Positions 1-45,950 of a DNA stretch of 64,000 nt are shown here, piece after piece. How positions within the stretch are numbered: position 1 is the stretch's first letter; each line of letters starts with the position of its first letter. The notes beneath the pieces were generated by a model. The model had not been told where the DNA came from. It ran no database searches and saw only the letters and a program-made list of their open reading frames with translations. The position numbers and the translations under genes were made by a program. Source of the stretch: Dictyostelium discoideum (taxonomy: Eukaryota); contig CM000152.2 in assembly GCA_000004695.1 (NCBI GenBank), positions 416,001 to 480,000 of the forward strand, written 5' to 3'.

Positions 1-547
1 TATTAAAATAACCCACAATTTTATATTATAAAAAAAGACAATCTTTTATGGATATTATTTCATTTTTTATTTTTTTTTTGGATTGTGGTATGAAATTGTA
101 AATTTAAAAAAAAAAAACTCAAAAACATAGTGTTATTAAACATTTATAATAAAAAGCTTATATTAAAGATGAGAATAATTAACCAATTAGTAATTGTTAT
201 TGGTATGTTTTTATTTTTTTTGATTTCTTTTTTTAACAAATCATACGAAAACTTTGTAAAATAACTTATACTTTGTTGATTAAATATACAAATGGAAAGA
301 AAGTAAATATAATTTTCTGAAAATAAATGAAGTATTTTTTACAAAAAATTAAATTAATTAAAAAAAAAAAAAATTAAATAAAAATTAAAAAATCGATATT
401 GGTATAAATAAAAAAGAATTTAATTTGGTAAAACTATTTTAATGTTTATTATATAAAATTTATTTATTTTTTTATTTTATTTTATAGACATATAAATTGG
501 ATTTTTCTTAAATAAAAAAAAAAAATAAAATAAACCATTAAAAAAAA

Positions 548-3500
548 ATGAAAGTTTTTTTATTAATATTATTGGTTTGTTTTATTTCTATTAATGTTGA
601 TGCATTTCATAATTATAGAGCCAATTGTGATTACACCTCTTGTCCTAGAGAATTTAGTTGCCATGTAATCAATAGAAATATCACTGCTTGTTTACCAGAT
701 AATGATATTTGTAGAAATTTTCCATGTCCACAGGGTAGTCATTGTTTCAATGGTGAAAGAGGTCCTGGTTGTTTTGATGATATCCATTATCCAAATTTAT
801 GCTATGTAACCCATTGTTCATTGGATTATGATTGTAGAATGGTTAGAGGTGATCCAATATGTTTAAGATTTCAAAATGTTAATCCAACTAATACTCCAAC
901 CCCCACCCCAGTTCATTGTACCACTTGTGCTGAACTAGCTTCTACTTGTCACTCTGATGGTTTAGTTTGTAGAACTATTGTTAATCCCAAGTGCCGTGGT
1001 AATTCAATAAAAGCTCTCGCCAAAACTAAAGCATGTTGTCCATATATTGCATTTTGTGATTCAAATTCAACCTCACACACAACTGGGGTACAAACAACAA
1101 CAGGAAGAAGTACGACTGGTGTACAATCAACAACTGGTAGGAGTACAACTGGTAGAAGTACAACTGGTAGAGGTACAACTGGTACAAGTACAACTGGTAC
1201 AAGTACAACTGGTACAAGCACAACTGGTAGAAGCACAACTGGTACAAGTACAACTGGTACAAGTACAACTGGTAGAAGTACAACTGGTACAAGTACAACT
1301 GGTACAAGTACAACTGGTACAAGTACAACTGGTACAAGCACAACTGGTACAAGTACAACTGGTACAAGCACAACTGGTACAAGTACAACTGGTACAAGTA
1401 CAACTGGTACAAGTACAACTGGTACAAGCACAACTGGTACAAGCACAACTGGTACAAGCACAACTGGTACAAGTACAACTGGTAGAAGCACAACTGGTAG
1501 AAGTACAACTGGTAGAAGTACAACTGGTAGAAGTACAACTGGTAGAAGTACAACTGGTAGAAGTACAACTGGTAGAAGTACAACTGGTAGAAGTACAACT
1601 GGTTCCGCTTCAACCACAGGAAGAGGTACAACTGGTTCTGCTTCAACCACAGGAAGAGGTACAACTGGTTCTGCTTCAACCACAGGAAGAGGTACAACTG
1701 GTGCTGCTTCAACCACAGGAAGAAGTACAACTGGTAGAGGTACAACTGGTAGAAGTACAACTGGTAGAAGTACAACTGGTTCCGCTTCAACCACAGGAAG
1801 AGGTACAACTGGTTCCGCTTCAACCACAGGAAGAAGTACAACTGGTTCCGCTTCAACCACTGGAAGAAGTACAACTGGTTCTGCTTCAACCACAGGAAGA
1901 GGTACAACTGGTTCTGCTTCAACTACAGGAAGAGGTACAACTGGTTCTGCTTCAACCACAGGAAGAGGTACAACTGGTTCTGCTTCAACCACAGGAAGAG
2001 GTACAACTGGTTCTGCTTCAACCACAGGAAGAAGTACAACTGGTGCTGCTTCAACCACAGGAAGAAGTACAACTGGTAGAGGCACAACTGGGGTACAATC
2101 AACAACTGGTGCTGCTTCAACCATAGGAAGAAGTACAACTGGTTCTGCTTCAACCACAGGAAGAGGTACAACTGGTGCTGCTTCAACCACAGGAAGAAGT
2201 ACAACTGGTGCTGCTTCAACCACAGGAAGAAGTACAACTGGTAGAGGTACAACTGGTGCTACTACTGCTAATTCAATAGGTGGTTTGACAACTGCTGGCG
2301 TCACAACAGTTGCTGGAGTAACTACTGCTACTGCCTCAACCGTTGCTGGAGTAACTACTGCCTCAACCGTTGCTGGTGTAACTACTAATTCAATAGGTGG
2401 TGTAACCACAGGAAGAGGTACAACTGGTGCTGCTTCAACTACAGGAAGAAGTACAACTGGTAGAGGTACAACTGGTGCTACTACTGCTAATTCAATAGGT
2501 GGTTTAACAACTGCTGGCGTCACAACAGTTGCTGGAGTAACTACTGCTACTGCCTCAACCGTTGCTGGAGTAACTACTGGTAGAGGTACAACTGGTTCTG
2601 CTTCAACCACAGGAAGAGGTACAACTGGTGCTGCCTCAACCGTTGCAGGAGTAACTACTGCTAATTCAATAGGTGGTATAACCACTGCTACTGCCTCAAC
2701 TGTTGCTGGAGTAACTACTGCTAATTCAATAGGTGGTTTGACTACTGCTGGCGTCACAACCGTTGCTGGAGTAACTACTGCCTCAACCGTTGCTGGAGTA
2801 ACTACTGCCTCAACCGTTGCTGGTGTAACTACTAATTCAATAGGTGGTGTAACCACAGGAAGAGGTACAACTGGTGCTACTACTGCTAATTCAATAGGTG
2901 GTGTAACCACAGGTAGAGGTACAACTGGTGCTACTACTGCTAATTCAATAGGTGGTTTAACAACTGCTGGCGTCACAACAGTTGCTGGAGTAACTACTGC
3001 TACTGCCTCAACCGTTGCTGGAGTAACTACTGCTACTGCCTCAACAGTTGCTGGAGTAACTACTGCTAATTCAATAGGTGGTTTGACAACTGCTGGCGTC
3101 ACAACAGTTGCTGGTGTCACTACTGTCAATTCAATAGGTGGTGCAACCACTGCCAATTCAATAGATGGTGCAACCACTGCCACTGCCTCAACCGTTGCAG
3201 GAGTAACTACTGCTAATTCAATAGGTGGTATAACCACTGCTACTGCCTCAACTGTTGCTGGAGTAACTACTGCTAATTCAATAGGTGGTGTAACCACAGG
3301 AAGAGGTACAACTGGTGCTGCTTCAACTACAGGAAGAAGTACAACTGGTAGAGGTACAACTGGTGCTACTACTGCTAATTCAATAGGTGGTTTAACAACT
3401 GCTGGCGTCACAACAGTTGCTGGAGTAACTACTGCTACTGCCTCAACCGTTGCTGGAGTAACTACTGCTAATTCAATAGGTGGTTTGACAACTGCTGGCG

Positions 3501-6500
3501 TCACAACAGTTGCTGGTGTCACTACTGTCAATTCAATAGGTGGTGCAACCACTGCCAATTCAATAGATGGTGCAACCACTGCCACTGCCTCAACCGTTGC
3601 AGGAGTAACTACTGCTAATTCAATAGGTGGTATAACCACTGCTACTGCCTCAACTGTTGCTGGAGTAACTACTGTCAATTCAATAGGTGTAACAACTGCT
3701 AGTTCAATAGGTGGTTTAACAACTGCTGGCGTCACAACCGTTGCTGGTGCCACTACTGCCAATTCAATAGGTGGTTTAACTACTGCTGGCATTACAACAG
3801 TTGCTGGTGCCACTACTGTCAATTCAATAGGTGGTTTGACAACTGCTGGCATCACAACAGTTGCTGGTGTCACTACTGCCAATTCAATAGATGGTGCAAC
3901 CACTGCCACTGCCTCTGCCTCAACCGTTGCAGGAGTAACTACTGCTAATTCAATAGGTGGTATAACCACTGCTACTGCCTCATCTGTTGCTGGAGTAACT
4001 ACTGCTTCAGTTGGAGGTTTGACAACTGCAGTTGCCTCTACAGTAGCTGGAGTAACTACTGCTGCTTCAATAGGTGGCGTAACCACTGCTACTGCCTCAA
4101 CCGTTGCTGGAGTAACTACTGCCTCAACCGTTGCTGGTGTAACTACTAATTCAATAGGTGGTGTAACCACTGCTACTGCCTCAACTGTTGCAGGTGTAAC
4201 TACTGCTGCTTCAATAGGTGGTTTAACTACTGCTGGTTTAACAACAGTTGCTGGATTTACCACTGCTGCCTCTGTTGGAGGTTTAACTACTGCTGGTGCT
4301 ACAACAGTTGCTGGTTCAACAACTTCCCCAGCATCAGTAGGTGACTTAACTACTGCTGGAGCAACAACAGTTGCTGGGGTTACCACTGCTGCTTCTGTTG
4401 GAGGTTTAACTACTGCTGGTGCTACAACAGTTGGAGGTTTAACTAATGCTAATTCAATAGGTGGTGTAACCACTGCTACTGCCTCAACGGTTGCTGGTGT
4501 AACTACTAATTCAATAGGTGGTGTAACCACTGCTACTGCCTCAACTGTTGCAGGTGTAACTACTGCTGCTTCAATAGGTGGTTTAACTACTGCTGGTTTA
4601 ACAACAGTTGCTGGAGTAACTACTGCTTCAGTTGGAGGTTTGACAACTGCAACTGCCTCTACAGTAGCTGGAGTAACTACTGCTGCTTCAATAGGAGGTT
4701 TAACTACTGCCGGCATTACAACAGTTGCTGGTTCAACAACAACAGTTGCTGGAGTCACCACTGCTGCTTCTGTTGGAGGTTTAACTACTGCTGGTGCTAC
4801 AACAGTTGCTGGAGTTACTACTGCTGCTTCTATTGGAGGTTTAACTACTGCTGGTGCTACAACAGTTGCCGGAGTTACTACTGCTGCTTCTATTGGAGGT
4901 TTAACTACTGCCAGTTTAACAACAGTTGCTGGTTCAACAACTTCCTCTTCATCAGTTGGTGGTTTAACTACTGCTGGAGCAACAACAGTTGCTGGAGTAA
5001 CTACTGCTGCTTCTGTTGGTGGTTTAACTACTGCTGGTATTACAACAGTTGCTGGAGTTACTACTGCTGCTTCTGTTGGAGGTTTAACTACTGCCGGTTT
5101 AACAACAGTTGCTGGTTCAACAACTTCCTCTTCATCAGTTGGTGGTTTAACTACTGCTGGAGCAACAACAGTTGCTGGAGTTACTACTGCTGGAGCAACA
5201 ACAGTTGCTGGAGTTACTACTGCTGCTTCTGTTGGAGGTTTAACTACTGCCGGTATTACAACAGTTTCTGGAGTAACTACTGCCAATTCAATAGGTGGCG
5301 CGAACACCGCTACCGCCGGTATAACTACTGCTGGAGCAACAACAGTTGCTGGAGTTACTACTGCTTCTGTTGGTGGTTTAACTACTGCCGGTATTACAAC
5401 AGTTGCTGGAGTAACTACTGCTGCTTCTGTTGGTGGTTTAACTACTGGTATTACAACAGTTGCTGGAGTTACTACTGCTGCTTCTGTTGGAGGTTTAACT
5501 ACTGCCGGTTTAACAACAGTTGCTGGTTCGACAACTTCATCTTCATCAATTGGAAGTTTGACTACGGCTGGTTTAACAACAGTTGCTGGAGTTACTACCG
5601 CTGCTTCTGTTGGAGGTTTGACAACTGCCGGTGTAACAACAGTTGCTGGCTCAACAACTTCCCCAGCATCAGTAGGTGGTTTAACTACTGCTACTGCCTC
5701 AACGGTCGCTGGAGTTACTACTGCCGCTTCAATAGGAGGTTTAACTACAGCTGGTATAACAACAATTGCTGGTTCAACAACTTCTGCTTCATCAGTGGGT
5801 GGTTTAACTACTGCTGGTTTAACAACAGTTGCTGGAGTTACTACTTCTGCTTCTGTTGGAGGTTTTACAACTGCCGGTATAACAACAGTTGCTGGTTCAA
5901 CAACTTCCCGAGCATCAGTAGGTGGTTTAACTACTGCTGGTGCTACAACAGTTGCTGGAGTTACTACTGCTGCTTCTGTAGGTGGTTTAACTACTTCTTC
6001 TTTGACAACAGTAGCTGGTGTCACTACTGGTACTGCTTCTGTTGGTGGTTTAACGACTGCTGGTGTAACTACCACCGCTGCTTCTGTTGGTGGTTTAACA
6101 ACTGCAGGTATTTCAACAATATCTGGTGTTACTACTGCCACAGCCTCAACGGTGGCAGGTATGACTACTGCCGCTGCTACATCAGGTGGTGTTTCAACTG
6201 CTACCGTATCATCAGGTGCCACAACTACTCAGGCATCAACACTATTTGGAATAACAACTGCTGCTTCTGTAGGCGCTTTAACAACAGCAGGTATGACAAC
6301 AGTCGCTGGTTTTACTACTGCTGCTTTTGTAGGTGGTTTAACAACTGCTGGTTTAACAACTGCTGGTGTAACTACTACCGCTGCTTCTGTTGGTGGTTTA
6401 ACAACTGCTGGTGTAACAACTACTGCTGCTTCTGTTGGTGGTTTAACAACTGCTGGTGTGACTACTACCGCTGCTTCTGTTGGTGGCTTAACAACTGCTG

Positions 6501-6805
6501 GTGTAACTACTACCGCTACTTCATCAGGTAGTGTTTCAACTGCTACCGTATCATCAGGTGCCACAACTACTCATGCTTCAACACTATTTGGAATAACAAC
6601 TGCTGCTTCAATAGGTGCTTTAACAACTGCAGGTATGACAACAGTAGCTGGTGTTACTACTGCTGCTTCTGTAGGTGGTTTAACAACTGCTGGTCTATCA
6701 ACAGTATCTGGTGTAACTACTTCTGCTTCTGTGGGTTCTTTAACAACTGCTGGTTCAACAACTCGTTCTGGTTCAACAACTCGTTCTGGTATAATAGGTG
6801 GTTAA
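548..6805 (+). CDS. Secreted cysteine-rich / Thr-Gly-rich mucin-like repeat protein (2085 aa, single exon)
   Basis: Continuous ORF with an ATG in AT-rich context. N-terminal signal peptide MKVFLLILLVCFISINVDA. About 170-aa Cys-rich domain (many CxxC / C-P pairs). Then ~1900 aa of hierarchical tandem repeats: STTG[RT] 5-aa units, then GTTGSASTTGR 11-aa units, then degenerate TTAGVTTVAGVTTA(N/A)SIGG units. Codon usage (ACT/ACA, GGT, GCT) fits the + strand only. Predicted to be heavily O-glycosylated and extracellular. Confidence 0.8.
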   Translation: MKVFLLILLVCFISINVDAFHNYRANCDYTSCPREFSCHVINRNITACLPDNDICRNFPCPQGSHCFNGERGPGCFDDIHYPNLCYVTHCSLDYDCRMVRGDPICLRFQNVNPTNTPTPTPVHCTTCAELASTCHSDGLVCRTIVNPKCRGNSIKALAKTKACCPYIAFCDSNSTSHTTGVQTTTGRSTTGVQSTTGRSTTGRSTTGRGTTGTSTTGTSTTGTSTTGRSTTGTSTTGTSTTGRSTTGTSTTGTSTTGTSTTGTSTTGTSTTGTSTTGTSTTGTSTTGTSTTGTSTTGTSTTGTSTTGTSTTGRSTTGRSTTGRSTTGRSTTGRSTTGRSTTGRSTTGRSTTGSASTTGRGTTGSASTTGRGTTGSASTTGRGTTGAASTTGRSTTGRGTTGRSTTGRSTTGSASTTGRGTTGSASTTGRSTTGSASTTGRSTTGSASTTGRGTTGSASTTGRGTTGSASTTGRGTTGSASTTGRGTTGSASTTGRSTTGAASTTGRSTTGRGTTGVQSTTGAASTIGRSTTGSASTTGRGTTGAASTTGRSTTGAASTTGRSTTGRGTTGATTANSIGGLTTAGVTTVAGVTTATASTVAGVTTASTVAGVTTNSIGGVTTGRGTTGAASTTGRSTTGRGTTGATTANSIGGLTTAGVTTVAGVTTATASTVAGVTTGRGTTGSASTTGRGTTGAASTVAGVTTANSIGGITTATASTVAGVTTANSIGGLTTAGVTTVAGVTTASTVAGVTTASTVAGVTTNSIGGVTTGRGTTGATTANSIGGVTTGRGTTGATTANSIGGLTTAGVTTVAGVTTATASTVAGVTTATASTVAGVTTANSIGGLTTAGVTTVAGVTTVNSIGGATTANSIDGATTATASTVAGVTTANSIGGITTATASTVAGVTTANSIGGVTTGRGTTGAASTTGRSTTGRGTTGATTANSIGGLTTAGVTTVAGVTTATASTVAGVTTANSIGGLTTAGVTTVAGVTTVNSIGGATTANSIDGATTATASTVAGVTTANSIGGITTATASTVAGVTTVNSIGVTTASSIGGLTTAGVTTVAGATTANSIGGLTTAGITTVAGATTVNSIGGLTTAGITTVAGVTTANSIDGATTATASASTVAGVTTANSIGGITTATASSVAGVTTASVGGLTTAVASTVAGVTTAASIGGVTTATASTVAGVTTASTVAGVTTNSIGGVTTATASTVAGVTTAASIGGLTTAGLTTVAGFTTAASVGGLTTAGATTVAGSTTSPASVGDLTTAGATTVAGVTTAASVGGLTTAGATTVGGLTNANSIGGVTTATASTVAGVTTNSIGGVTTATASTVAGVTTAASIGGLTTAGLTTVAGVTTASVGGLTTATASTVAGVTTAASIGGLTTAGITTVAGSTTTVAGVTTAASVGGLTTAGATTVAGVTTAASIGGLTTAGATTVAGVTTAASIGGLTTASLTTVAGSTTSSSSVGGLTTAGATTVAGVTTAASVGGLTTAGITTVAGVTTAASVGGLTTAGLTTVAGSTTSSSSVGGLTTAGATTVAGVTTAGATTVAGVTTAASVGGLTTAGITTVSGVTTANSIGGANTATAGITTAGATTVAGVTTASVGGLTTAGITTVAGVTTAASVGGLTTGITTVAGVTTAASVGGLTTAGLTTVAGSTTSSSSIGSLTTAGLTTVAGVTTAASVGGLTTAGVTTVAGSTTSPASVGGLTTATASTVAGVTTAASIGGLTTAGITTIAGSTTSASSVGGLTTAGLTTVAGVTTSASVGGFTTAGITTVAGSTTSRASVGGLTTAGATTVAGVTTAASVGGLTTSSLTTVAGVTTGTASVGGLTTAGVTTTAASVGGLTTAGISTISGVTTATASTVAGMTTAAATSGGVSTATVSSGATTTQASTLFGITTAASVGALTTAGMTTVAGFTTAAFVGGLTTAGLTTAGVTTTAASVGGLTTAGVTTTAASVGGLTTAGVTTTAASVGGLTTAGVTTTATSSGSVSTATVSSGATTTHASTLFGITTAASIGALTTAGMTTVAGVTTAASVGGLTTAGLSTVSGVTTSASVGSLTTAGSTTRSGSTTRSGIIGG
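1087..6790 (+). repeat. Coding tandem-repeat array (15-nt, 33-nt and ~66-nt units) inside the mucin-like gene
   Basis: Visible periodicity agtacaactggta[gc]a (x~35), then ggttc[ct]gcttcaaccacaggaagaggtacaact units, then degenerate gttgctggagtaactactgct units. These generate the spurious long ORFs on both strands. Confidence 0.9.
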
Positions 6806-7107
6806 ACTTGCTATTAAATATATCTTTTAATTAATAAAAATCCTTTGATATTTACAACTATTTTAAATTTAAAACATCTTTGAATTAATATATATATATA
6901 TCTTAAATTAATAAAAATCCTTACTATTTGATATTTACCACTATTTTAAAGATGTTTTAATTTCTTTGGATTTCACATGTGGATCTGAAATTTTGTTAAC
7001 GAGATAACCAAATTAAACACACTGACCAAATATCTTCGATTTCATATTGATTTTTGGTGATATGGATTTTGAAGATTGAAGTGTTGATGTATATAATTTG
7101 GGTGAAG

Positions 7108-7273
7108 AATTTAATTTTGTTGGAGATTTATATAACAATAAACATTATAATTTTAGAATAATAATAATAAAAATATAATACAAGTGAAAATATACCAATT
7201 CAAGTCTTATTGGTTTTAATTATTTTAAAATTATAATAATTTATTGTTATATAAATCTCCGACAAAATTAAAT
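7108..7273. repeat. Imperfect ~55-bp inverted repeat pair (arms 7108-7160 and 7221-7273, 60-bp spacer). MITE-like or foldback structure.
   Basis: Left arm aatttaattttgttggagatttatataacaataaacattataattttagaata. Its reverse complement occurs at 7221-7273 (aatttaattttgtcggagatttatataacaataaattattataattttaaaata) with 3 mismatches. Confidence 0.6.
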
Positions 7274-7630
7274 TCTGATTCATCACAAAAGAATAAACTT
7301 CTACCACGTGGTTATTGTTGATTTACTTGATGATTATTTCTTTGATTATCAAATACTAATTGACATTGTTATTTATATTGTAAATTATGATGATCTAAAC
7401 TATACCTTAGAGAAACGAATCGATTCGTAAATTAAATGTTTAATTTGGTAGAAAAAAAAAAAAAAAAAATGGAAATGGAAAATCAAAAAAAAATAAAAAT
7501 TGTGCAGATTGGAATGACCCAATTAAATAAAAAAAAGTAAAAAAAAATAAAAAAAATAAAAAAATTGAAACAGCACTTTTTTTTTAATTTCATTTATTTT
7601 ATTTTAAATTTTATTATTATTTAATAAACA

Positions 7631-7635
7631 AATAA

Positions 7636-7733
<98 letters not shown>
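7631..7733. repeat. (AAAT)n microsatellite, about 26 units, ending 3 nt before the ints11 ATG
   Basis: Direct reading: aaataaataaataaat... from 7631 to 7733 followed by aaaaATGaca. Confidence 0.95.
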
Positions 7734-7734
<1 letters not shown>

Positions 7735-7736
7735 AA

Positions 7737-10046
<2,310 letters not shown>

Positions 10047-10270
10047 AATTGAAATTTATAATAAAAAACTTTTTTTTTTTTTTTTTGTTTTCTCAATTTA
10101 AATTAACCCATAACAAAATCACAATCGGTTTTTTCAATTTTTGCGCTTAAAATTCAAATATTGGTGCACTTTTTTTTTTTTTTTTTTTTTTTTTCATTTA
10201 CACTCGTTTTATTATATTACACACAAATTCATAAAATAATAAAAAAAAAAAAAAAATAAAAATAATAAAA

Positions 10271-11288
10271 ATGACAACCCCAATTTTAAATTCTTCAGTA
10301 CCTGGTAATATACAAAAAAAATCATTAGAAGGGACACATATTGCAATTAGTGGTTTAGTAAGTAATGTACAAAAAAAAATAAAAAATAAAAAATAAAAAA
10401 TTATTACTATTATTAACTTTTTTATTTTTAAAATTTAGATTGGTGCAGGTAAAACTACATTAGCTGTAGCATTGGGAAAAGTTTTAAATTTACCAACATA
10501 TGTATGTTAAAATAATAATAGAAAAAAAAAATAAATAAAAAAAAAAAAGTTGTAAATGTATATTAACTTTTTTTTTTTTTATTTTTTTTTTTAGTTTGAA
10601 GAAGTTATTGACAATTTATATTTACAAGATTTTTATAAAGATCCTAAAAAATATGGTTTTCAACTTCAAATATATTTATTAAATTCAAGATTTCAACAAG
10701 TAAGTAATAAAAAAAATAAAAAATAAAAAAAAACAAAATAAAAAAAAAACACACACTCATATTTATTTTTTTATTTTTTATTTTTTATTTTTTTTAAAAA
10801 AATAGCAACAACAAATTATTTGGCAAGCTAGAGGTGGTGTGCAAGATAGAACCATTTATGAGGATTCAGTGTTTGCAAAGATGTTAAATGAGAGTGGACT
10901 TTTGGATGACAGAGATTATAATACCTATTGTAAATTATTTCAAAATTTAAGTAACTTTATGAGAAGACCAGATTTAATTATACATTTAGATGTTTCACCT
11001 GAAAAAAGTTTAGAAAGAATTAAATTAAGAAATAGAGATTGTGAAAAGGATGTTTCACTAGAGTACCTTCAAAATTTATATAACGCATATCACGAGTTCT
11101 TGCAAGACATCTCTCGTTACATTCCAGTAATTCGTATCAATTGGAGTGAATTTGTTGACCCTGAACAATTGGCTCAAATGATTAAAGCTGAATATGAATC
11201 AATGAGATTTATGAATCAAATTAATCCTCCAACTTTTGGTAATGGTCCAACCACTAATAAAATTATATCAACTCCAAAAGATTTATAA
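10271..11288 (+). CDS. Deoxynucleoside kinase (dCK/dGK/dAK family). Exons 10271..10357, 10439..10501, 10595..10699, 10806..11288.
   Basis: P-loop ISGL|IGAGKTTLA split by intron 1. ERS-like motif DRTIYEDSVFA. Lid/arginine-rich RIKLRNRDCEKDVSLEYL. Three short AT-rich introns with GTAAGT/GTATGT donors and AG acceptors keep the frame. Dictyostelium is known to have bacterial-like dAK/dGK and a dCK. Which one this is cannot be decided without a search. Confidence 0.8.
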
Positions 11289-11698
11289 AAAAAATAAAAA
11301 AAAAAAAAAAAAAAAAAAAAAATTATTATAATATTAAATAATATATATTAAATTAAATTTAATTATTTTAATTAATTAATTTATTTTTATAATAATAATG
11401 ATAATAATAATAGTAATAAAATAAAAATAAAAAAAATGAAATTTACTAAATTTTGTAGTTTTTGGATTTTATTATAACACACACACTAAATATTATTTTA
11501 TTTTTTATTTTTATTTATTTTTTTTATTTTTGTTTTATTTTTTTTTTATTTTTGTTTTATTTTTTTTTATTTTTGTGTTATTTTTTATTTTTTATTTTTT
11601 ATTTTTTTATTTTTTTTTACTTTTGTTTTTCAAAGTTATAACCAGTTTTTTTTTTTTTTTGTCGTTTCATTTAATTTATTTTTTCATTTAAAATTTAA

Positions 11699-11763
<65 letters not shown>

Positions 11764-11973
11764 TATAAATATAACCAACACCTCGCACATAAATAAAAAA
11801 ACTAAAAAAACTTAAAAACTAAAAAACTAAAAAACTAAAAAACTAAAAAAAAAAAAACTAAAAAAAAACTTAAAAAAATAAGACAAGGAAACATTAAACA
11901 TTAAACATTAAACATAAAGAAAAAGATATATATAGAGAGATAGATAATATTATAAATCAAATTATTGGTCTAA

Positions 11974-14638
<2,665 letters not shown>

Positions 14639-14728
14639 TAAATAATAAAAAAAAAAAAAAACTATATAATTTTTTTTTTTTTTTTTTTTTTCAATTTATA
14701 TGATTTTATTTGATTGTGTATAATTTTA

Positions 14729-15733
14729 TTAGTTAAATTTTATTTGGTTTTTATTTCCACCTAATAATCCACTTGGTAAACCAGTACCAAATGGAAAATT
14801 ACTACCGCCACTACCACTGGTAATACTTGATGGGAAACCAGTACTACTACTACTAGAGCTAGAGCTAGAGAATGAATTACCACTTGATGAGACAACAGTT
14901 GAGGATGGACCTGATGTTGTTATGGTTGTGGTTTGTTTTGATGTTGTAGTTGATGATGTGGTTGATGGAGTTGATGAGATTTGTAAATTCTTGTCACTAC
15001 CACTAGTGATACTAAATGGGAAACCAGTACTAATATCACTACTGCTACTACTAGAGCTAGAGCTAGAGAATGAATTACCACTTGATGAGACAACAGTTGA
15101 GGATGGACCTGATGTTGTTATGGTTGTTGTTTGTTTTGATGTTGTAGTTGATGATGATGATGATGTGGTTGATGGAGTTGATGAGATTTGTAAATTCTTA
15201 TCACTACCACTAGTGATACTAAATGGGAAACCAGTACTAATACCACCACTGCTACTACTACCAGAGGTAGAGAATGTATTACCACCTGATGAGACAACAG
15301 TTGAGGATGGACCTGATGTTGTTATGGTTGTTGTTTGTTTTGATGTTGTAGTTGATGATGATGAAAATTGTAAATTCATATCAATTCCATATTGACTACA
15401 ATAAACAACTGAACCTTCAGCATATTCACCACCTGGTACACATTCAAACCAAATGGTTTTCTTACTGAAAACCCCTTTACAATTATTATTGTTAAAAACT
15501 CTACTCTCATAATTGTTTGTAAACTTTTCAACTGTTTTAATTGATTTATAAGTTCCACAATTTTCAATCAATGTACATTCTCCAATTGTTGTTGTGATAT
15601 TGTTACTGCTACCAACTCCATTTGGACATTTTGTAAATGTAATATAAAATTCCAATTCATTTTGTTGTGAAAAAACAACAATAGTATAAATTAATACAAA
15701 AAGTGTAATTATTAATGATTTTAATGATGTCAT
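14729..15733 (-). CDS. Secreted Ser/Thr-rich protein with three ~60-aa tandem repeats (334 aa)
   Basis: ORF with signal peptide MTSLKSLIITLFVLIYTIVVFS. Cys-containing N-terminal domain. Three repeats of TTTSKQTTTITTSGPSSTVVSS..GFPFSITSGSDKNLQISSTPSTTSS. ATG preceded by pure A/T. Confidence 0.7.
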   Translation of the reverse strand: MTSLKSLIITLFVLIYTIVVFSQQNELEFYITFTKCPNGVGSSNNITTTIGECTLIENCGTYKSIKTVEKFTNNYESRVFNNNNCKGVFSKKTIWFECVPGGEYAEGSVVYCSQYGIDMNLQFSSSSTTTSKQTTTITTSGPSSTVVSSGGNTFSTSGSSSSGGISTGFPFSITSGSDKNLQISSTPSTTSSSSSTTTSKQTTTITTSGPSSTVVSSSGNSFSSSSSSSSSSDISTGFPFSITSGSDKNLQISSTPSTTSSTTTSKQTTTITTSGPSSTVVSSSGNSFSSSSSSSSSTGFPSSITSGSGGSNFPFGTGLPSGLLGGNKNQIKFN

Positions 15734-15913
15734 TTTAGTTTAGTTGTATTTAAAAATAAATAAAAATAAAAATAAATTATCAAAAAAAAAAAAAATGAAA
15801 ATTATAAAAAAAAAATATTAAACAGAAGCGGATTTTTTCGAAAACTGGTATCGAAAAAAAAAAAAAAAAACATTCTTTAGAAAAAAACCAAAACGTGAAA
15901 AAATGGGTTTGGG

Positions 15914-15952
<39 letters not shown>

Positions 15953-16236
15953 AAGAATTAAAAAAAAAATATTATCATTCTTTATTAATAATAAAAATAA
16001 AATAAAAAAACCCTAATTCTAATATTTATTGAAAAAAAAATAAAGTAAAAAATAAAAATAAATTATATTAAAAAAAATGTTTTTATTAATAGAAATAAAA
16101 TAAAAATAAAAATAAAAAAAAAAAATTTAAATCGGATGTGTTTTCATTTTTTTAATATTTTCGTTTTTACATTTTTTTTTAATTTTCATTTTCATTTTAT
16201 TTTTTAAAAAATAATTTTCATTGTGGTAAAAAGAAA

Positions 16237-17844
16237 ATGAAAAAAAGAACAAGAGATAATAATGATAATAATAATAATGAAGAAGTTGATATTAAAAAAT
16301 TGAAAGAAGATAATAACAATAATGAAAATAATAATAATAATAATATTAAAAGTTATGAAGAGGAACTTAAATCAATAAAATCAATTAAAAAATCTGAATT
16401 ATCAATTAAAAGATTACAAAGTATTTCAAAAGAAATTGGATTACCAATAAATGGTAAAAAAGATGAAATATATAATAGAATTGAACAATATTATAATATT
16501 AAAATTAAATTAGAAAAAGAAGCTAAAGAACATGAAGAGAAAAATCCATTTAATAAAACTAAACCAATATTATTAATTGAAAATGATGATGAAATACCAT
16601 TTTGGAAAGTTTTTAGAAATAAATCAATATTTAAAAAGATATTTTCAAATTTTAAATATTCAGAGACATTTAGTTATTCAAGAACATATTCAGTTTTTTT
16701 TATTTTTAAGGATTTTAAAAATGCTACTGAAATCATTAGAGACAAAGTAAAATCAAATAGTTATTTAAATTTTAGAAATTATAGTGATCTGATTGTCCAA
16801 AAAGAAGAAAAAGAAGAAGATGATGATGAAGATGAGTGTTTTATTGGTTTAGTAAAGATTTTAGAAAACATTAGAGATGAAACTGAAGAAAATAGATTGT
16901 TTTATGATAAACTTATAGATAACTATTGTAATAAGTCAATTCACAGTATGGCTTTATTGGCTAGAATGATTACCTGTTCAAATTTGGTGGCTTTGAAATC
17001 ATTTATTAATAAAAAAATTTACTTTCCAGGAGTCGGTTTTAGCCCAACAATTAAAAGATTTTCAGATATTAAAACTTTGGAATATTTAATTAATCTTGAA
17101 CATGATTCTATCAATTCTATTAGTGCATCTATCTATGATTTCAATTTATTTAAAGAACTTAAATTGGGTGAATTAATTCATATGATCAAAATATTATATC
17201 AAAAAGAAAAAATTTCCAAATTTTTAGATTTACCATATTATCATAATTTTATTATAAAATTACCTGAAGATACCCTTTCTTCTGATGATGAAGATAAATT
17301 TATTGATGAACAATTTAAACAACATAAAAAAGAATTTAGAGAAGGTGTTATAAAAAAAGAATCAATTATAAATGAAATTAAAGATATTCAATTTTCAAAT
17401 AAAGAATTAAATGAAAATTTATTTATGGTTTTAAAACCATTAACAAATTGGGATAATTATTTTTCAAAATTAAATGATAATTATAAAGATACTACTAGTA
17501 ATAATAATAACAATGATGATGAAAATGGTAGTGAATTATCTTTATTAAAATTTAATATTTTAGAATTATATAATAATAAATTAAAGAAAAATTTTGAAAA
17601 ATTACAAGTATTATTTAATGTTAAAAAATTTGAATTTCCAGAAAAAGATTTTCAAGACATTGAAAATATTCACAAGGAACAAATTGAAATTGAAAAAGAA
17701 ATGAAGATTCTATTTAAAAAACAAAATGAATTAATTGAAAAACAAAAACAAGAAAAAGAATCTCTTCAGTCAGAAGATATTGTTAAAAAAAGAGATGCAA
17801 TACATAAATATATAGAATTACTTTTTTTTTTTAACATCACCTAG
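16237..17844 (+). CDS. SAP-motif (LSIKRLQSISKEIGLPINGKKDEIYNRI) protein with FWKVFRNK motif and acidic/Lys-rich C-terminus. Probably continues into the next ORF.
   Basis: 535-aa ORF. SAP-like helix-turn-helix near the N-terminus. Ends in a T11 run (17822-17832), after which an open frame in +1 continues without an ATG (see findings). Confidence 0.6.
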   Translation: MKKRTRDNNDNNNNEEVDIKKLKEDNNNNENNNNNNIKSYEEELKSIKSIKKSELSIKRLQSISKEIGLPINGKKDEIYNRIEQYYNIKIKLEKEAKEHEEKNPFNKTKPILLIENDDEIPFWKVFRNKSIFKKIFSNFKYSETFSYSRTYSVFFIFKDFKNATEIIRDKVKSNSYLNFRNYSDLIVQKEEKEEDDDEDECFIGLVKILENIRDETEENRLFYDKLIDNYCNKSIHSMALLARMITCSNLVALKSFINKKIYFPGVGFSPTIKRFSDIKTLEYLINLEHDSINSISASIYDFNLFKELKLGELIHMIKILYQKEKISKFLDLPYYHNFIIKLPEDTLSSDDEDKFIDEQFKQHKKEFREGVIKKESIINEIKDIQFSNKELNENLFMVLKPLTNWDNYFSKLNDNYKDTTSNNNNNDDENGSELSLLKFNILELYNNKLKKNFEKLQVLFNVKKFEFPEKDFQDIENIHKEQIEIEKEMKILFKKQNELIEKQKQEKESLQSEDIVKKRDAIHKYIELLFFFNIT

Positions 17845-17989
17845 AAAAAAGCCAATTGAATATTATTTATGTTTTAAAGATGAAAAAGAAATTATATTAA
17901 ATGCAAAAAATTCAAGAAAGGAATTATTAAAAAATTTTAAGTGGAATTACAGATGTTTTCAGTTCACCAAAGACAAATTAGAGTTGATA

Positions 17990-18725
17990 ATGCATTCAAA
18001 ATTTTTAATTGAAAAACCATATAAACATATGTTTGAAGATTATGTTGGGTCCTATGTAATTAGTAATGTTAAATCAATTGATATGTTGGATCTATTATTT
18101 AAAAATTTTTCAAACAAATTCTTTAAAGACAACAATCAAAATTGGCCATACTGCAATAGTATTGAAATTTTAAAACATTATGAAAAACTAATGGAATCAT
18201 TAGGTAGAAAATTCTCACTCAATTTTAATTATGGTAAACAAAATGAAATGTATCCAAAATTATTAAAAAGAGCTATTAGTAATCCGAAATTATATCAATG
18301 CCCAGGTTCCTCATCTTCCCCTTCAGCAACACCATCATCACCATCAAATGGAGAAAATCCATTAAAAGTTAATAATATTATTGTAAAGGAAAGAGCATTT
18401 TTATCATTATTAGAATTAAATTATTTTAAAACTATTAGATTTGGTAAAAAATTCCAATTTAACAAAAACTCTTTTAAAATTTCAAGATGGATCTCAGATA
18501 ATTGTATTTCAGATATATCAAAAATCACTTTTAATGAAGGTCATTTAACTAAAATTTATATTCAACTACCAAATATAAAATGCAATAAAAATGATCAAAA
18601 TGATGAAGGCTACTATGATTATGTTGAAGAATATATGGATTATGATAATGATTACGAAGAACAATTTTCTTATTTTTCCTCACATATTAATAATAATAAT
18701 GATAATAATAATGATAATAATAATG

Positions 18726-28472: not shown

Positions 28473-28511
<39 letters not shown>

Positions 28512-28625
28512 TAAAAAATTTAAAGAAAATTAAAATAAAAAAAAAAATCAAAGAATAAAAGATTTACCAAAAATAACAACCACAACAACAGAAACAACAA
28601 CGACAACAACCAACAGGAGTGCATC

Positions 28626-29492
28626 ATGTGTGGAATATCGGTAATCATAAATGGAATTAAAATTTTAGAACCAATAAATAAAAATGGTCAAAATAAGGAT
28701 TTAAAAGAAACTATAACAACATCAACATCAACACCAACACCAATTGCAATTGGTGATTATTATACAATTAAAAATGATATTGAATCAAGATTAATCAATA
28801 GAGGACCAGATTCAATAAAAAGTAAATTGATTGAAATTAAATGTTTTCAAAAAGATATTGATAAAGAGATTAGCATAAGTATGGAATTAATATCATCAGT
28901 TCTCGGACTTAGAGGACCATTAACAATTCAACCATTAACTGATGAAAATAATGGTAATACATTATTATGGAATGGTGAATTATTTGGTGGTTATGAAATT
29001 GGTATTCATGATAATGATACTTGTTTATTATTACATTTATTATCAAAAATTAATGAAAATGAAAGTGAAAATCAAGAAATCAATGAAAATGAAATTGAGA
29101 GAGAATTAATTGAAATTATGTTGAAAATAAAAGGGCCATTCGCATTTTTATATTGGCAAGAGAAAAAAAGAAAACTTTGGTTTGGTAGAGATGTATTAGG
29201 TAGAAGAAGTTTATTAGTAAATAATGAAACCATTATCAATGATAAACCATCACTAATCATATCGTCAATGGGTTCATTTCCAAATGGTATCGATGATTCA
29301 ATAAGGTTACCAAAATGGGATGAAATTAACACATTTGGTTTATTTTCAATCCATTTTCCAAAAATTATTGAAACTAATATAATTCATTTTAAAATCCATC
29401 CATGGGATATTTCAAATATTAATTTAAATATTGGTATGATTTCATTAGATTATGATAATGATAATGATAATGAAGAAGAATCAAATACAAAT

Positions 29493-29523
<31 letters not shown>

Positions 29524-30299
29524 AAGAAATTGAAGAAATTGAAGGAAATAATATTGACCAATTACATTTTTATCCATTTGGTAGAAGAGAGAAATTAGAT
29601 ATAGAAAAAGGTGAATGGAGTGAAAAGGTTTTTAATGACTATGTAAATGGATTTTATGAGGCAATTAGTGATTCAATTAATGTTAGATTAAATAATTTAC
29701 CAATTGCTTCATTGGAAATACCAGATTTAATTAGAGCACCGTTTTTACAAGAGAAACCATTACCTTTGGTTTCTAGATTAGGTATTTTGTTTAGTGGTGG
29801 TTTGGATTCAATGGTTTTAGCCGCAATGTCAAATAAACATATGGAAACACCTGATGAACCAATTCATTTGATTAATGTTGCTTTTGGTGATGATGATTCA
29901 CCATTTGAAGAATATGATAAGGTACCAGATAGAAAAGCAGCAATCTCTGGTTTAAAGGAATTACAAACTATTGCACCAAATAGACAATGGAAATTAATTA
30001 AAGTAAATGTTGGTACAAAAGAAATGGAATGGGCTAAAAAAATAGTTTATCAATTATCTTATCCTGCTATTACAATTATGGATATGACAATTTGTTTAGC
30101 ACTTTGGTTCGCTGGTAGAGGTGAAGGTATATTACATGGTGAGGAGTTAAAAGGTCAAGGTCAACAACAACAGCAACGTTATATGACAACTTGTAAAGTT
30201 TTATTAATGGGTAGTGGTGCAGATGAACAGTTAGCAGGTTATTTAGACATAAATCAGCATTTCAACGTGGTTCTTGGCCAATACTTCGAGCAGAGTTGA
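28626..30299 (+). CDS. Asparagine synthetase domain-containing protein 1 (ASNSD1) homolog, intact N-terminal 557-aa ORF
   Basis: Starts MCGI (Cys2 nucleophile of class-II glutamine amidotransferases). NGELFG, PP-loop SRLGILFSGGLDSMVLAAM, LLMGSGADEQLAGY. Order and spacing match human ASNSD1. Confidence 0.8.
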
Positions 30300-30858
30300 A
30301 TAAAGATTTTAATAGGATTTGGAAAAGAAATTTAGGTAGAGATGACCGTGTTTTAAGTAGTAATAGTCGTGTATCCAAGATTTCCATATTTGGATGAATC
30401 ATTGATTTCCTATTTAAATGGTATTGAGTTACCTTATATTTGTGATTTATCTTTACCACAAGGTACAGGTGATAAAAGGATTTTACGTGAAGTTGGTCGT
30501 AAATTAGGTTTAACCGAATCAACTAAACTTAATTAAAAAAGCAATTCAATTCGGCTCAAGATCTTCAAAACAATTGAATAAAAATGTTCCAGCAAGAATC
30601 ACTCAAAAATGTGGTAAAGATGTTTTTTCATTTACAACTCCAATTTATGATCCACTTCAAGATCCTGGTTATGAAGCTCTTCAAAAACAAAAATTAAAAC
30701 AAAAAATGAGTTTGGAAAGAAAGGAAAAAAAAAATAAAGAAAAATCTGAAAAAATTGAAAAGAAAATTAATTTTAAAAACCAACAAGAAAAACAAAAACA
30801 ACAACCAAATGATGATGAAAATATATTAAGGAAAAAAGAAGTAAAAAATTGTAATTAA
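30227..30858 (+). pseudogene. Frame-shifted C-terminal continuation of the ASNSD1 homolog (three frame changes)
   Basis: Homology to the ASNSD1 C-terminus continues in frame 2 (RHKSAFQRGSWPILRAELNKDFNRIWKRNLGRDDRV). It returns to frame 0 (YPRFPYLDESLISYLNGIELPYICDLSLPQGTGDKRILREVGRKLGLTESTKLN), then frame 1 (IKKAIQFGSRSSKQLNKNVPARITQKCGKD...). The junctions at ~30243, ~30371 and ~30531 are single-nucleotide indels with no intron signals. Confidence 0.6.
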
Positions 30859-31654
30859 AATTTATGGAATAAAATATTAATTTTTTTTATTTAAATTGAT
30901 ATTGTAATAAAATTGAAACCACAAAAAATAGTTTCTTTGTCCAAAAACACTATTTTATTAATTGAAAGACCTTTCTTCCCTTTTTTTCTATTTTACCATT
31001 TTTTGTAATTATTTTTTATTTTGAAGAACAACAATAGGGAATATATTTTATATTAAAAATAGATTTTAATAAAAAAAAAAAAATTTATTGGATTTGTTTA
31101 TTTTTTTTTTTTATATTTATATAATATAAATTTTTATTTTCAATTATTTATTTTTAAATGAGTGTGCAGAATGAAAAAATAAAAATTAAAAGTTTTTACC
31201 CTTTTTTTTTTTATTTTTTATTTTTTTATTTTTTTTTTAATTTATAAATCAAAAAAATAAATGAATTAAATCTGGATTATTTAAATTCTAAAAATAAAAT
31301 TTTGTTTAAAAAAATAAAAAAAATATTTTTCCAATAAGTTTGCTAATCAAAAAAAAAAAAAAAAAAATTTTTTTTATATTTTGGCCAACTTTTTAATCAA
31401 AAAACGAAAAAAAAGTTTTCTCTTTTTTTTTTTTTTTCATTTTTTCACTTTTTTATTTTTTCACTTTTTTATTTTTCATAATATCTTGAAATAATATTAT
31501 TCATATTCACTCGTAATAATACATATAAATTGATATCAATCAGAAAAACAAACAAACAAACAAACAAGCAAATAAACAAACAAAAAAAACGAACAAACAA
31601 AAAACGAACAACAATAAAATAAATAATAAATAAATAAATATATATAAATAAAAA

Positions 31655-32707: not shown

Positions 32708-38535
<5,828 letters not shown>

Positions 38536-38542
38536 TTTGCTT

Positions 38543-38573
<31 letters not shown>

Positions 38574-38812
38574 TTTTATTTTATTTTTAAAATAATAATA
38601 GAATTAATACTTATTAAGAATTATATTTATTTTTATTATTAAAATTTTATTTTTACTATTTTGGAATTTTGGGGGTTTGATTGGAATATTTTATTTTTTT
38701 TTTTTTTTTTTTTAAAAAAAAATATTTAAGTGTATATTTAAATATATACAGGTGAATTTAGATTAACTACAAAAAGTTTAATTATTTATTTTATTATTAT
38801 TATTATTATTTT

Positions 38813-42703: not shown

Positions 42704-42765
<62 letters not shown>

Positions 42766-42848
42766 TAAACTTTTATAAAAAAATTAAAAATGTGTAAACC
42801 ACACATTCTATTGCCCAGTTGGTATGTGTGTGTGTGTGTGACACATAT

Positions 42849-43552: not shown

Positions 43553-45950
43553 ATGGAGATATTAACAACAATTGAAAGAAGTAAATTATATATATATATT
43601 TATTGCTCAATAATAATAAAAAAAAAAATAATCTAACCTAATTTTTTTTTTTTTTTTTTTTTTAATAAATAGAAAATATAGATATTTTTTTAGGACAAAA
43701 GAATGAAGATGAAAATTATTTACAAAGAATTGAAGTAAAAGGAAAGAAACCAAGAAAATTATTCTTTATCATTGGAAATAATAGAATTTTCTTTTTTAAA
43801 GTTGGTGGTAAAATTGAAACAGATCATCATTTTTTAGATATTTTAGAATTAAAATATGATGGTATAAAAGAAGTAAGTTTTATTTATTTATTTATTTATT
43901 TATTTGTTTAATTTATTTGTTTTTTGTTTAATAAATTAATTTTTTTTATTTTTTTTTATTTTTATTTTTAGATAACATTAAAATTTAAAAATGATAATGG
44001 TAAAGAACCATTAATATTTGGAGTTGAAACAGATGCAGATGCATCAGAGATTGTTTTGGCAATTGATTATTTATTTACATTGAATTTTCCAGGTATGCAA
44101 TCAAATAGATTAAAGATTACAGTACCAGAACCAAAGAGAACCGAAATTTATAGTTCACCAAATGCATTGATACCAGATATGGGAGCATGTGGAGGATTCA
44201 CTTTAACTTATTTCTCAATGTGTGATCATATGAACATTCAACCAATTAGTGAAGTATCTTGGCATATTGAAAATGTTATCTCTGGTACATTAATAAGAGA
44301 ATTCGATTATGGTTTCTTTTTTAAAAAAGAAAGAATCATCACTGCTGACGCAAGACCAATCATGGCAGCATTATCAATTAATCCTTATTTTAATTCATTT
44401 TCAATTAAAGATATTAAATTATCAAGTGAATGGTAATCATCATTATAATAATAATAATAATGATAATTAATAATATATATATATATATATATATATTAAT
44501 ATTTATTTATTTTATTTTATATAGTATTTTTTCAATAATTGGTTTAATTAATCAAAATTTATATTTTACAAAATTAGTATTAAATGGTATTGGATTAGAT
44601 AGATCAACAACAGAGAAATTAATTGAGGCATTTAATAGTAATAAAATGATACCATTGAGAGAATTAGATCTTGGTAATAATTCAATTGAGGATAAGGGTA
44701 TGATGGTTTTGGGTGAATATTTAAAGGTTACACCATATGAATTGAAAAGTTTAATATTGAATAATTGTTCAGCCGGTAAGAATTCAATGACAGTGATTGG
44801 TGAAGCAGTTTCTAATAATGAAAATATTTTAAAGAATTTAAAGTATTTGGATGTCAGTGGTAATAGATTAGAGAATGATGGGTCATCATCATTTTCAAAG
44901 CTATTGGAGAGATCAAAAGTGTTGTCTACTTTTTTAATTGGTAATAGTAATCCACAGTTTCATCAACTTTCAAAGGTTTGTATATCGTTGACTAAATTTG
45001 ATAACTCTGGTAATAGAATCACGAGAAAGGATAACATTCACAGAGATATGGTTAGCTTTTTAAATCATTCCATCTATCTATCGAGTTTGAATCTATCAAA
45101 ATGTCAAATTCCAGTGGAGGCAGTCGCCGATATCTTTGGCGAGGGTAACCTAATCAAATTGGAGACTTTGAACATCTCTGACAACGATTTGGGCGACGAG
45201 GGCATAACGATCCTCTGTGATTTCATGGCAAACCATCAAAGTATTCGTAATTTAGATCTTAGTGGTAACTTTTCAAAGAGAACTAAAGCTAGACAAACCG
45301 CTATAGAATCCATTGTTAATATGTTGGAAAAGAAATCAAAGACTCACAATTCCATACGTTCTTTGATTTTAAACAGTGGTTACACCGGTGGCGGTAGTAG
45401 CAGTAGACAGTTGAAGGGCGATCTATTGCCAATCGTATGCTCGGTGTTCTACAATGGCTCTTTGAAGGAGTTGGATATCAGTGGTCATTCAAGTGGCGAT
45501 ATTTTAGCAGCTGCAATTGGTAAACTCTTGCAATGTAACACTGGTTTGGAAACTCTCTATTTCGATGATAACTCTATTAGTAGTCGTGGTTTGACTTTAA
45601 TTAAATTTGGTTTACAAAGAAATACAACAATCACTCAATTACCATTACCAATTAAAGATATTGCTGCCTCTTTGAAAAGTGATGCAACTCCATTGAATCT
45701 TCAAAAGTTAACAGAGGTTTCAAATGAAATTCAACAAACTATCCTAGACAATTATACAAATAAAATTCAAGGTACAACTCTAACAAATAATTCAATTAAA
45801 ACTCAATCACTCTCTAGATCAAGAGCAAATTCAACTCCATTAGTAATTGATACAAAATCAACAATTGCAACTTGTGCTGGTTTAAATTCTTTTATTTCAA
45901 TTGATATTGATAATACAATTGAACCATTAGCAAATTTAATTGTTAATTAA
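43553..45950 (+). CDS. CARMIL-like protein (N-terminal PH-like region + ribonuclease-inhibitor-type LRRs). Exons 43553..43580, 43694..43872, 43972..44432, 44525..45950.
   Basis: Exon 3 GACGGFTLTYFSMCDH...PIMAALSINPYFNSFSIKDIKLS aligns with human CARMIL1 GPCGGFSQMYACVCDW...[22 protein letters not shown]. LRR exon has LDLGNNSIEDKGMMVLGEYL, LDVSGNRLENDGSSSF, LNISDNDLGDEGITILCDF. All three introns have GTAAAT/GTAAGT/GTAATC donors with verified phases. The protein (~745 aa) is shorter than canonical CARMIL, so it may be a paralog lacking the C-terminal CP-binding and Pro-rich region. Confidence 0.75.

Follow-up and report, generated by a model that had tools for sequence, protein, structure and literature searches.

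An apparently frameshifted ASNSD1 gene in the Dictyostelium discoideum AX4 reference sequence probably reflects a local error patch

The gene and its reading frames

The window analyzed here is a stretch of 64,000 nucleotides (nt) from the Sanger-era reference sequence of chromosome 3 of Dictyostelium discoideum strain AX4 (assembly GCA_000004695.1, contig CM000152.2, positions 416,001 to 480,000, forward strand); all coordinates below are positions in this window. It contains DDB_G0278193, the orthologue of ASNSD1, whose reading frame appears to be broken three times near the 3' end. The region has 23% G+C and coding repeats of poly-Asn, poly-Thr and poly-Gln. The main features of the gene are as follows.

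28626-30858 (+): coding region of the ASNSD1 orthologue DDB_G0278193, in four frame segments
28626-30299 (+): open reading frame (ORF) of 557 amino acids, from MCGI to ADEQLAGY and then 17 out-of-frame residues and a stop
28629-28631 (+): codon for Cys2, the N-terminal nucleophile of class-II glutamine amidotransferases, recognized from the sequence and invariant in alignments
29793-29810 (+): PP-loop SGGLDS (residues 390-395), the ATP pyrophosphatase signature, aligned to human ASNS and fish ASNSD1

The 557-residue ORF, which begins MCGISV (28626-28643), contains the N-terminal nucleophile amidotransferase half and the PP-loop (Pfam GATase_7 and Asn_synthase matches). Three-frame translation of 30180-30860 shows where the rest of the protein lies. 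In frame 0, ADEQLAGY ends at 30242 and a stop codon follows at 30297-30299. The sequence RHKSAFQ...GRDDRVLSSNSRV (that is, RHKSAFQRGSWPIL...NLGRDDRVLSSNSRV) is in frame 2 at 30245-30373, YPRFPYLDES...GLTESTKL is again in frame 0 at 30372-30530, and IKKAIQFGSR...KNCN (IKKAIQFGSRSSKQ...KNCN) is in frame 1 at 30532-30855. The net shifts at the three junctions are, in order, -1, +1 and +1. A first-pass annotation, made from the letters alone, had proposed this frame order (0, 2, 0, 1), which the translation reproduces, and had placed the junctions at 30243, 30371 and 30531, no more than 2 nt from the actual 1-nt indels. Its restoration of the first junction as GY-S-RHK, on the other hand, has the wrong residue: the restored codon is TTT (Phe), giving GYFRHK as in all Dictyostelium alleles. 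The three indels are moreover accompanied by four substitutions (30288, 30298, 30367 and 30374), which were invisible to its author.

Identity of the protein

A conceptual protein of 743 residues, stitched from the frame segments of the window, was used as the query. Against Pfam it matched Asn_synthase at 51.2 bits (cut-off 21) and GATase_7 at 25.4 bits (cut-off 25), and it had dozens of ASNSD1-named matches in animals, plants and fungi, with E values from 1e-59 to 1e-87. Residues 52-666 of the intact allele described below are collinear with fish ASNSD1 (31% identity, E = 4e-84); the alignment crosses all three junctions without a break and includes the shared motifs GADEQLAGY, NLGRDDR, RFP(Y/F)LDE, G(D/E)K.LLR and A(I/M)QFGSR. 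The match of the same allele to human ASNS is marginal (E = 2.4e-5, 26 bits), with residues 520-628 aligned to human ASNS 354-455, the C-terminal part of the ASNS synthetase domain.

The hallmarks of the ASNSD1 group are thus all found: Met1-Cys2 together with GATase_7, SGGxDS (in the context LFSGGLDSMV, residues 388-397) together with Asn_synthase, and a similarity to ASNSD1 greater than that to canonical ASNS. By every sequence-level criterion of the family, then, the gene is the known, annotated ASNSD1 orthologue, and the ASNSD1-named matches and the collinear fish alignment confirm the identification made in the first-pass annotation. DDB_G0278193 is already named an ASNSD1 orthologue in the literature, where it is handled as a regulated, expressed gene; its knock-out, included in a dedifferentiation screen, gave a wild-type result in the marker assay (Northern blot of PCNA).

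The order of elements is that of animal ASNSD1: the MCG nucleophile, GATase_7, the PP-loop within SGGLDSMVLAA, and then C-terminal motifs that in fish ASNSD1 read GADEQLAGY, NLGRDDR, RFPFLDE, GEKLLLR and AMQFGSR. Unlike its animal counterparts, the Dictyostelium protein has low-complexity inserts (a Thr run and Asn/Asp/Glu runs) and a Lys/Glu/Gln-rich tail of ~80 residues. The canonical glutamine-hydrolyzing asparagine synthetases (human ASNS, PDB 6GQ3/8SUE; E. coli AsnB) belong to the same two-domain superfamily but form a separate orthologous group, with only marginal sequence similarity to this protein.

Could an intact second copy exist elsewhere, as the first-pass annotation had asked? 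Searching the window with the 743-residue protein (tblastn) gave this locus as the only match, and a single AX4 protein was present among the proteins found in the family search, so that neither search yielded a second copy. Since the 557-residue truncation lacks the whole conserved C-terminal block, it is unlikely to be a functional enzyme.

The public gene model and its introns

The public AX4 model of DDB_G0278193 (XP_642197.1/Q54YK5) has 671 residues. An exhaustive search of GT..AG pairs showed that exactly one splice combination reproduces it from the window, with exons 28626-30192, 30367-30498 and 30542-30858; because the spliced translation equals XP_642197.1 residue for residue, the window is the AX4 reference. 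The two modeled introns, both of which we regard as spurious, are:

30193-30366 (+): intron 1, 174 nt, 66% A+T, GT..AG; removes 58 conserved codons
30499-30541 (+): intron 2, 43 nt, 77% A+T; absorbs the third indel

Intron 1 skips the first indel and two of the substitutions (30242-30298), and its last base directly precedes the substitution at 30367. The second indel (30372) falls just within the next model exon, where the model reads "FVY" in frame 0; these residues stand at the first splice in place of the missing sequence. Compared with the 743-residue product, XP_642197.1 lacks 72 residues (CKVLLMGSGADEQLAGYFRHK...NRRE and RKLGLTESTKLIKKA).

These introns are not believable because the most conserved part of the protein falls within them. 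Both segments carry conserved motifs, are in frame in all alleles, and are retained in transcript-sized contigs of another strain. The statement in the first-pass annotation that the junctions are not introns therefore holds, since the segments are conserved and in frame in other alleles. In short, gene prediction concealed the frameshifts by inventing two introns.

The same observations bear on the idea that genuine splicing, programmed ribosomal frameshifting or insertional RNA editing corrects the frame at the level of RNA or protein. GT..AG boundaries are indeed present at both modeled introns. However, the "introns" encode ASNSD1 motifs that every other allele reads in frame, their A+T contents lie on either side of that of the coding region (72%), and one is just 43 nt long. 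Sister genomes, furthermore, carry the corrected sequence in the DNA itself, which makes RNA-level repair unnecessary. We know of no precedent for three independent recoding sites within 300 nt. Recoding or editing was accordingly rejected, as the relatives have one uninterrupted frame in their genomic DNA, and we consider any restoration of this kind extremely unlikely.

Comparison with independent sequences

Assembly GCA_054883475.1 encodes a protein of 743 residues (ACTFIT_009953, KAM9948755.1) in one intron-less exon of 2,232 nt (743 codons plus the stop codon) on a 6.43-Mb chromosome. The 90%-identity cluster of the best match holds two full-length proteins, this one and another of 742 residues from a different D. 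discoideum strain, carried by 2.5-kb Logan contigs that derive from at least eight sequencing runs. The frame is also continuous in two further D. discoideum assemblies and in D. citrinum and D. firmibasis, and the C-terminal 200 residues are nearly invariant across five Dictyostelium genomes. A single continuous frame in independent sequence, which the first-pass annotation had named as the finding that would speak against its frame corrections, is thus what GCA_054883475.1 and the relatives contain.

ACTFIT_009953 agrees with the window at every strain-specific polymorphism (Tyr46, a long Thr run, Ser425 and the short ...ENILRKKEVKNCN end). It is identical to the window translation outside 30241-30375, and the differences are confined to codons 540-583, where it reads GYFRHK, ILQAEL and SSNRREPRF; its Phe540, Gln555 and Arg-Arg-Glu 581-583 stand against a gap, Arg and Ser-Arg-Val/Tyr in the window. 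Natural length polymorphisms, in frame within the coding sequence, set the AX4/AX2 allele apart from that of the Logan-contig strain: its (ACA)n Thr run is longer by 15 nt (29487-29501), a GAA/GTA repeat close to the C-terminus (30829/30830) is shorter by 12 nt (ENILR-KKEV vs ENILKEEVEEKEV), and two 4-nt indels lie in the 3' untranslated region (UTR).

The alignment to GCA_054883475.1 spans 18604-60464 of the window (~42 kb), with 1-18603 outside the comparison; a look-up with the ORF at 8055-10046, made to extend it leftward, gave no match. Excluding changes in homopolymer length, the two sequences show 13 scattered differences and one intergenic patch, or ~0.03%. Almost all other differences concern the length of intergenic runs of A or T of at least 10 nt; apart from three single-base cases, the reference has the longer run, by as much as 18 nt. 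Natural D. discoideum strains diverge by ~0.3%, ten times more, and AX4-derived lines share ~1,900 substitution discrepancies against the reference, a level comparable to 0.03%. This low divergence and the shared AX4-specific polymorphisms place GCA_054883475.1 in the same NC4-derived laboratory lineage. Holland et al. (2025) deposited ten Dictyostelium genomes sequenced by Nanopore and Illumina, the laboratory strain AX2-214 among them, and together with the locus-tag series this points to AX2-214 as the most likely source of the assembly.

Within the gene, the window and GCA_054883475.1 differ at seven sites (three 1-nt indels and four substitutions), all inside 289 bp (30241-30529); no difference falls in the other 1,944 bp of coding sequence. 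The states listed as "elsewhere" come from a DNA alignment of 30200-30570 that comprises the window and five other sequences: GCA_054883475.1, a Logan contig from a different strain, a divergent D. discoideum assembly, D. citrinum and D. firmibasis.

30242-30244 (+): discrepancy 1, TTT here and TTTT elsewhere; shift of -1 from frame 0 to frame 2, with loss of Phe540
30288 (+): discrepancy 2, G here and A elsewhere; private Arg for a conserved Gln
30298 (+): discrepancy 3, G here and A elsewhere; synonymous
30367 (+): discrepancy 4, T here and A elsewhere
30372 (+): discrepancy 5, extra T; shift of +1, back to frame 0
30374 (+): discrepancy 6, T here and A or G elsewhere
30529-30530 (+): discrepancy 7, CTT A here and CT(A/C) elsewhere; extra T, frame 0 to frame 1

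The window stands alone at all seven sites against the other five sequences (three D. discoideum strains and two species). These agree perfectly with one another at six sites and have A or G, never T, at 30374; none of the five has an indel anywhere in 30200-30570. Three of the discrepancies fall within the 8 nt of 30367-30374, where the window has AGT CGT G T A T CC and the others AGA CGT GAA CC. The spectrum is A>G twice (10 nt apart), A>T twice, a T gained twice and a T lost once. The background rate of the 42-kb comparison predicts 0.17 differences per 289 bp; the Poisson probability of seven or more is then 6e-10, or ~9e-8 when corrected for window placement.

These data leave next to no room for the converse proposal, that the window has the correct sequence here and the error lies in the newer Nanopore and Illumina assembly. 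Indel errors do occur in long-read assemblies, and homopolymer lengths account for most differences between the two assemblies, but errors would not restore the exact states of four other independently produced sequences, which include Logan contigs built from short reads and sequences of two other species. For both coding discrepancies, the ASNSD1 patch and a second one at 37798 (see below), GCA_054883475.1 has an open, homology-supported frame, which assembly error cannot create by chance.

Origin of the seven differences

The breaks are present in the reference, and all the independent sequences are intact. Since the intact state is ancestral and is also that of a sister laboratory strain, the seven states are either changes of the AX3/AX4 lineage or products of the sequencing of AX4. 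We think it very probable that the reference consensus has a local error patch at 30241-30529 and that the AX4 ASNSD1 gene is intact; that living AX4 cells carry the intact sequence is what we infer from this. The first-pass annotation had offered sequencing errors and a decaying pseudogene as alternatives: the intact independent sequences favor the former, and the relatives, which lack the lesions, speak against the latter.

An error patch would consist of 289 bp of base-calling or consensus errors within an otherwise correct gene: one T missing, two Ts extra, two A-to-G and two A-to-T miscalls. The true gene would be an intron-less single exon of 2232 nt and 743 codons, and the predicted product of this ASNSD1 orthologue would combine an N-terminal Cys2 glutamine-amidotransferase domain with a PP-loop (SGGLDS) adenylating synthetase domain. 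Its conserved C-terminal motifs for substrate and ATP binding (GADEQLAGY, NLGRDDR, RFPYLDE, GDKRILR and AIQFGSR) coincide with the apparently frameshifted region, and automated prediction, faced with the errors, would then yield the 671-residue XP_642197.1/Q54YK5, 72 residues short, through its two invented introns.

The main competitor is a real lesion private to the AX3/AX4 lineage, in which one complex event (for example error-prone repair of a break) produced seven clustered changes and a strain-specific unitary pseudogene, leaving AX4 with a truncated ASNSD1 of 557 residues that would be without the C-terminal synthetase motifs. The deposited AX4 chromosome does, after all, show these states, the near-identical assembly with the intact gene probably comes from AX2 and not AX4, and a knock-out without a phenotype in the PCNA Northern assay gives some indication that loss may be tolerated. 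Against this, seven changes lie in 289 bp, and the gene's other 1.9 kb has not a single one. The measured mutation rate is 2.9e-11 per site per generation, from which we estimate ~1e-3 changes in 289 bp over the tens of thousands of generations since the laboratory strains separated. At such a rate seven real mutations in a laboratory lineage are implausible, and independent hits are ruled out. The pattern of changes resembles that of bases miscalled from a poor trace. Other discrepancies private to the reference occur in this stretch, with GCA_054883475.1 restoring an open frame, and no contig in the collections searched encodes the truncated products. We therefore regard a private lesion as improbable.

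Nitrosoguanidine was used in the derivation of AX3, and its mutations are of the G:C>A:T type. The seven changes do not fit this spectrum, and clustering by nitrosoguanidine in the AX3 lineage was rejected for that reason. A unitary pseudogene was likewise rejected as a general explanation, as neither the near-identical assembly nor any other strain or species compared carries the lesions. The relaxed constraint that goes with such a gene is not seen either: of the 2,233 bp, 1,944 are free of differences, and the other 289 contain all 7.

That said, several points weigh against an error patch in an intact AX4 gene. For a finished Sanger consensus, seven errors in 289 bp is a high count. The intact 743-residue product was found in one NCBI assembly only and is absent from read-derived contigs; the evidence that AX4 is intact comes from other strains and species, and the attribution of GCA_054883475.1 to AX2-214 rests on inference, not documentation. 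AX2 and AX4 are independent derivatives of NC4, so that a lesion specific to AX3/AX4 is formally possible. The absence of contigs with the AX4/AX2 allele is probably due to a ~30-nt (ACA)n run at 29487-29520, which would break assemblies made with k=31; the Logan-contig strain, 15 nt shorter in this run, assembles end to end. The products of 557, 94 and 55 residues expected of a frameshifted AX4 contig had no exact look-up match in the collections searched. A protein search with the C-terminal 239 residues returned distant short homologues only and did not re-list known Dictyostelium proteins.

Transcript extent and leader

The contigs of the other strain also suggest the limits of the transcript:

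28492-31022 (+): extent matched by 2.5-kb Logan contigs of another strain, as defined by shared contig ends

Judging from these ends, 28492-31022 probably corresponds to the mRNA, with a leader of 134 nt and a 3' UTR of ~165 nt. The leader (28492-28625) contains no ATG and hence no upstream ORF. Animal ASNSD1 mRNAs carry an upstream ORF, ASDURF. The Dictyostelium gene differs from them in this respect, since a leader that has no ATG cannot hold an ASDURF counterpart.

Elsewhere in the window

At 37798 the AX4 reference contains a C that GCA_054883475.1 lacks, within a minus-strand gene at ~32708-38580. It splits the frame into two parts, 36549-38018 (490 residues) and 37798-38580 (261 residues), which in GCA_054883475.1 form one stop-to-stop ORF of 677 residues, part of a gene of 1824 residues. 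Lying 7 kb from the ASNSD1 patch, this extra C is probably a further error of the reference. The intergenic patch mentioned above is a 60-nt segment (42756-42814) flanked by two poly(A) runs of ~55 nt. It has 11 substitutions and 1 indel relative to GCA_054883475.1, with identical flanks; long homopolymers are hard for both sequencing technologies.

Near the start of the window (548-6805, +) lies an ORF of 2085 residues with a signal-peptide-like start, a Cys-rich head and a tail of ~1,800 residues of Thr/Gly/Ala/Ser-rich tandem repeats (TTGRS, VAGVTT and similar). It has 45% G+C in a genome of 23% G+C and no Pfam match, and its product looks like a mucin-like secreted or cell-surface protein. 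The opposite strand is open for 1757 residues (949-6222, -) in a Val/Pro/Ala-rich frame that is apparently a by-product of the repeat composition.

Other neighboring ORFs (8055-10046, 13001-14638 and 44430-45950) are ordinary, and include a metallo-beta-lactamase RNA-processing nuclease of the beta-CASP/RMMBL type, a class-3 lipase and a leucine-rich repeat protein. Downstream of ASNSD1 are an MRPL52-like gene and, further on, an eIF-1A gene, both called genes in GCA_054883475.1.

Implications

The three frame corrections within 300 bp are best classed as something other than a real biological feature. For the annotation, it follows that XP_642197.1/Q54YK5 is mis-modeled: it lacks the conserved block from GADEQLAGY to NLGRDDR, and it should give way to the correct product of 743 residues from a single exon. 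More generally, the AX4 reference probably holds local error patches, with two more candidates within 12 kb of the one in ASNSD1, and gene predictors have bridged such patches with false introns. Clusters of frameshifts in it should accordingly be checked against newer assemblies before pseudogenes, recoding or short introns are called, and the long-read assemblies of 2025 offer a quick route to cleaning such patches.

The value of the finding is mainly one of housekeeping, and it implies no new biology unless the lesion proves real in AX4. There is, in our judgment, a small chance that AX4 alone, and not AX2 or the wild isolates, carries a seven-change lesion that truncates ASNSD1 after residue 539. 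If so, the reference Dictyostelium strain would be a natural loss-of-function mutant of the conserved ASNSD1, and the lesion would be a case of clustered, kataegis-like mutagenesis in an organism whose point-mutation rate is exceptionally low.

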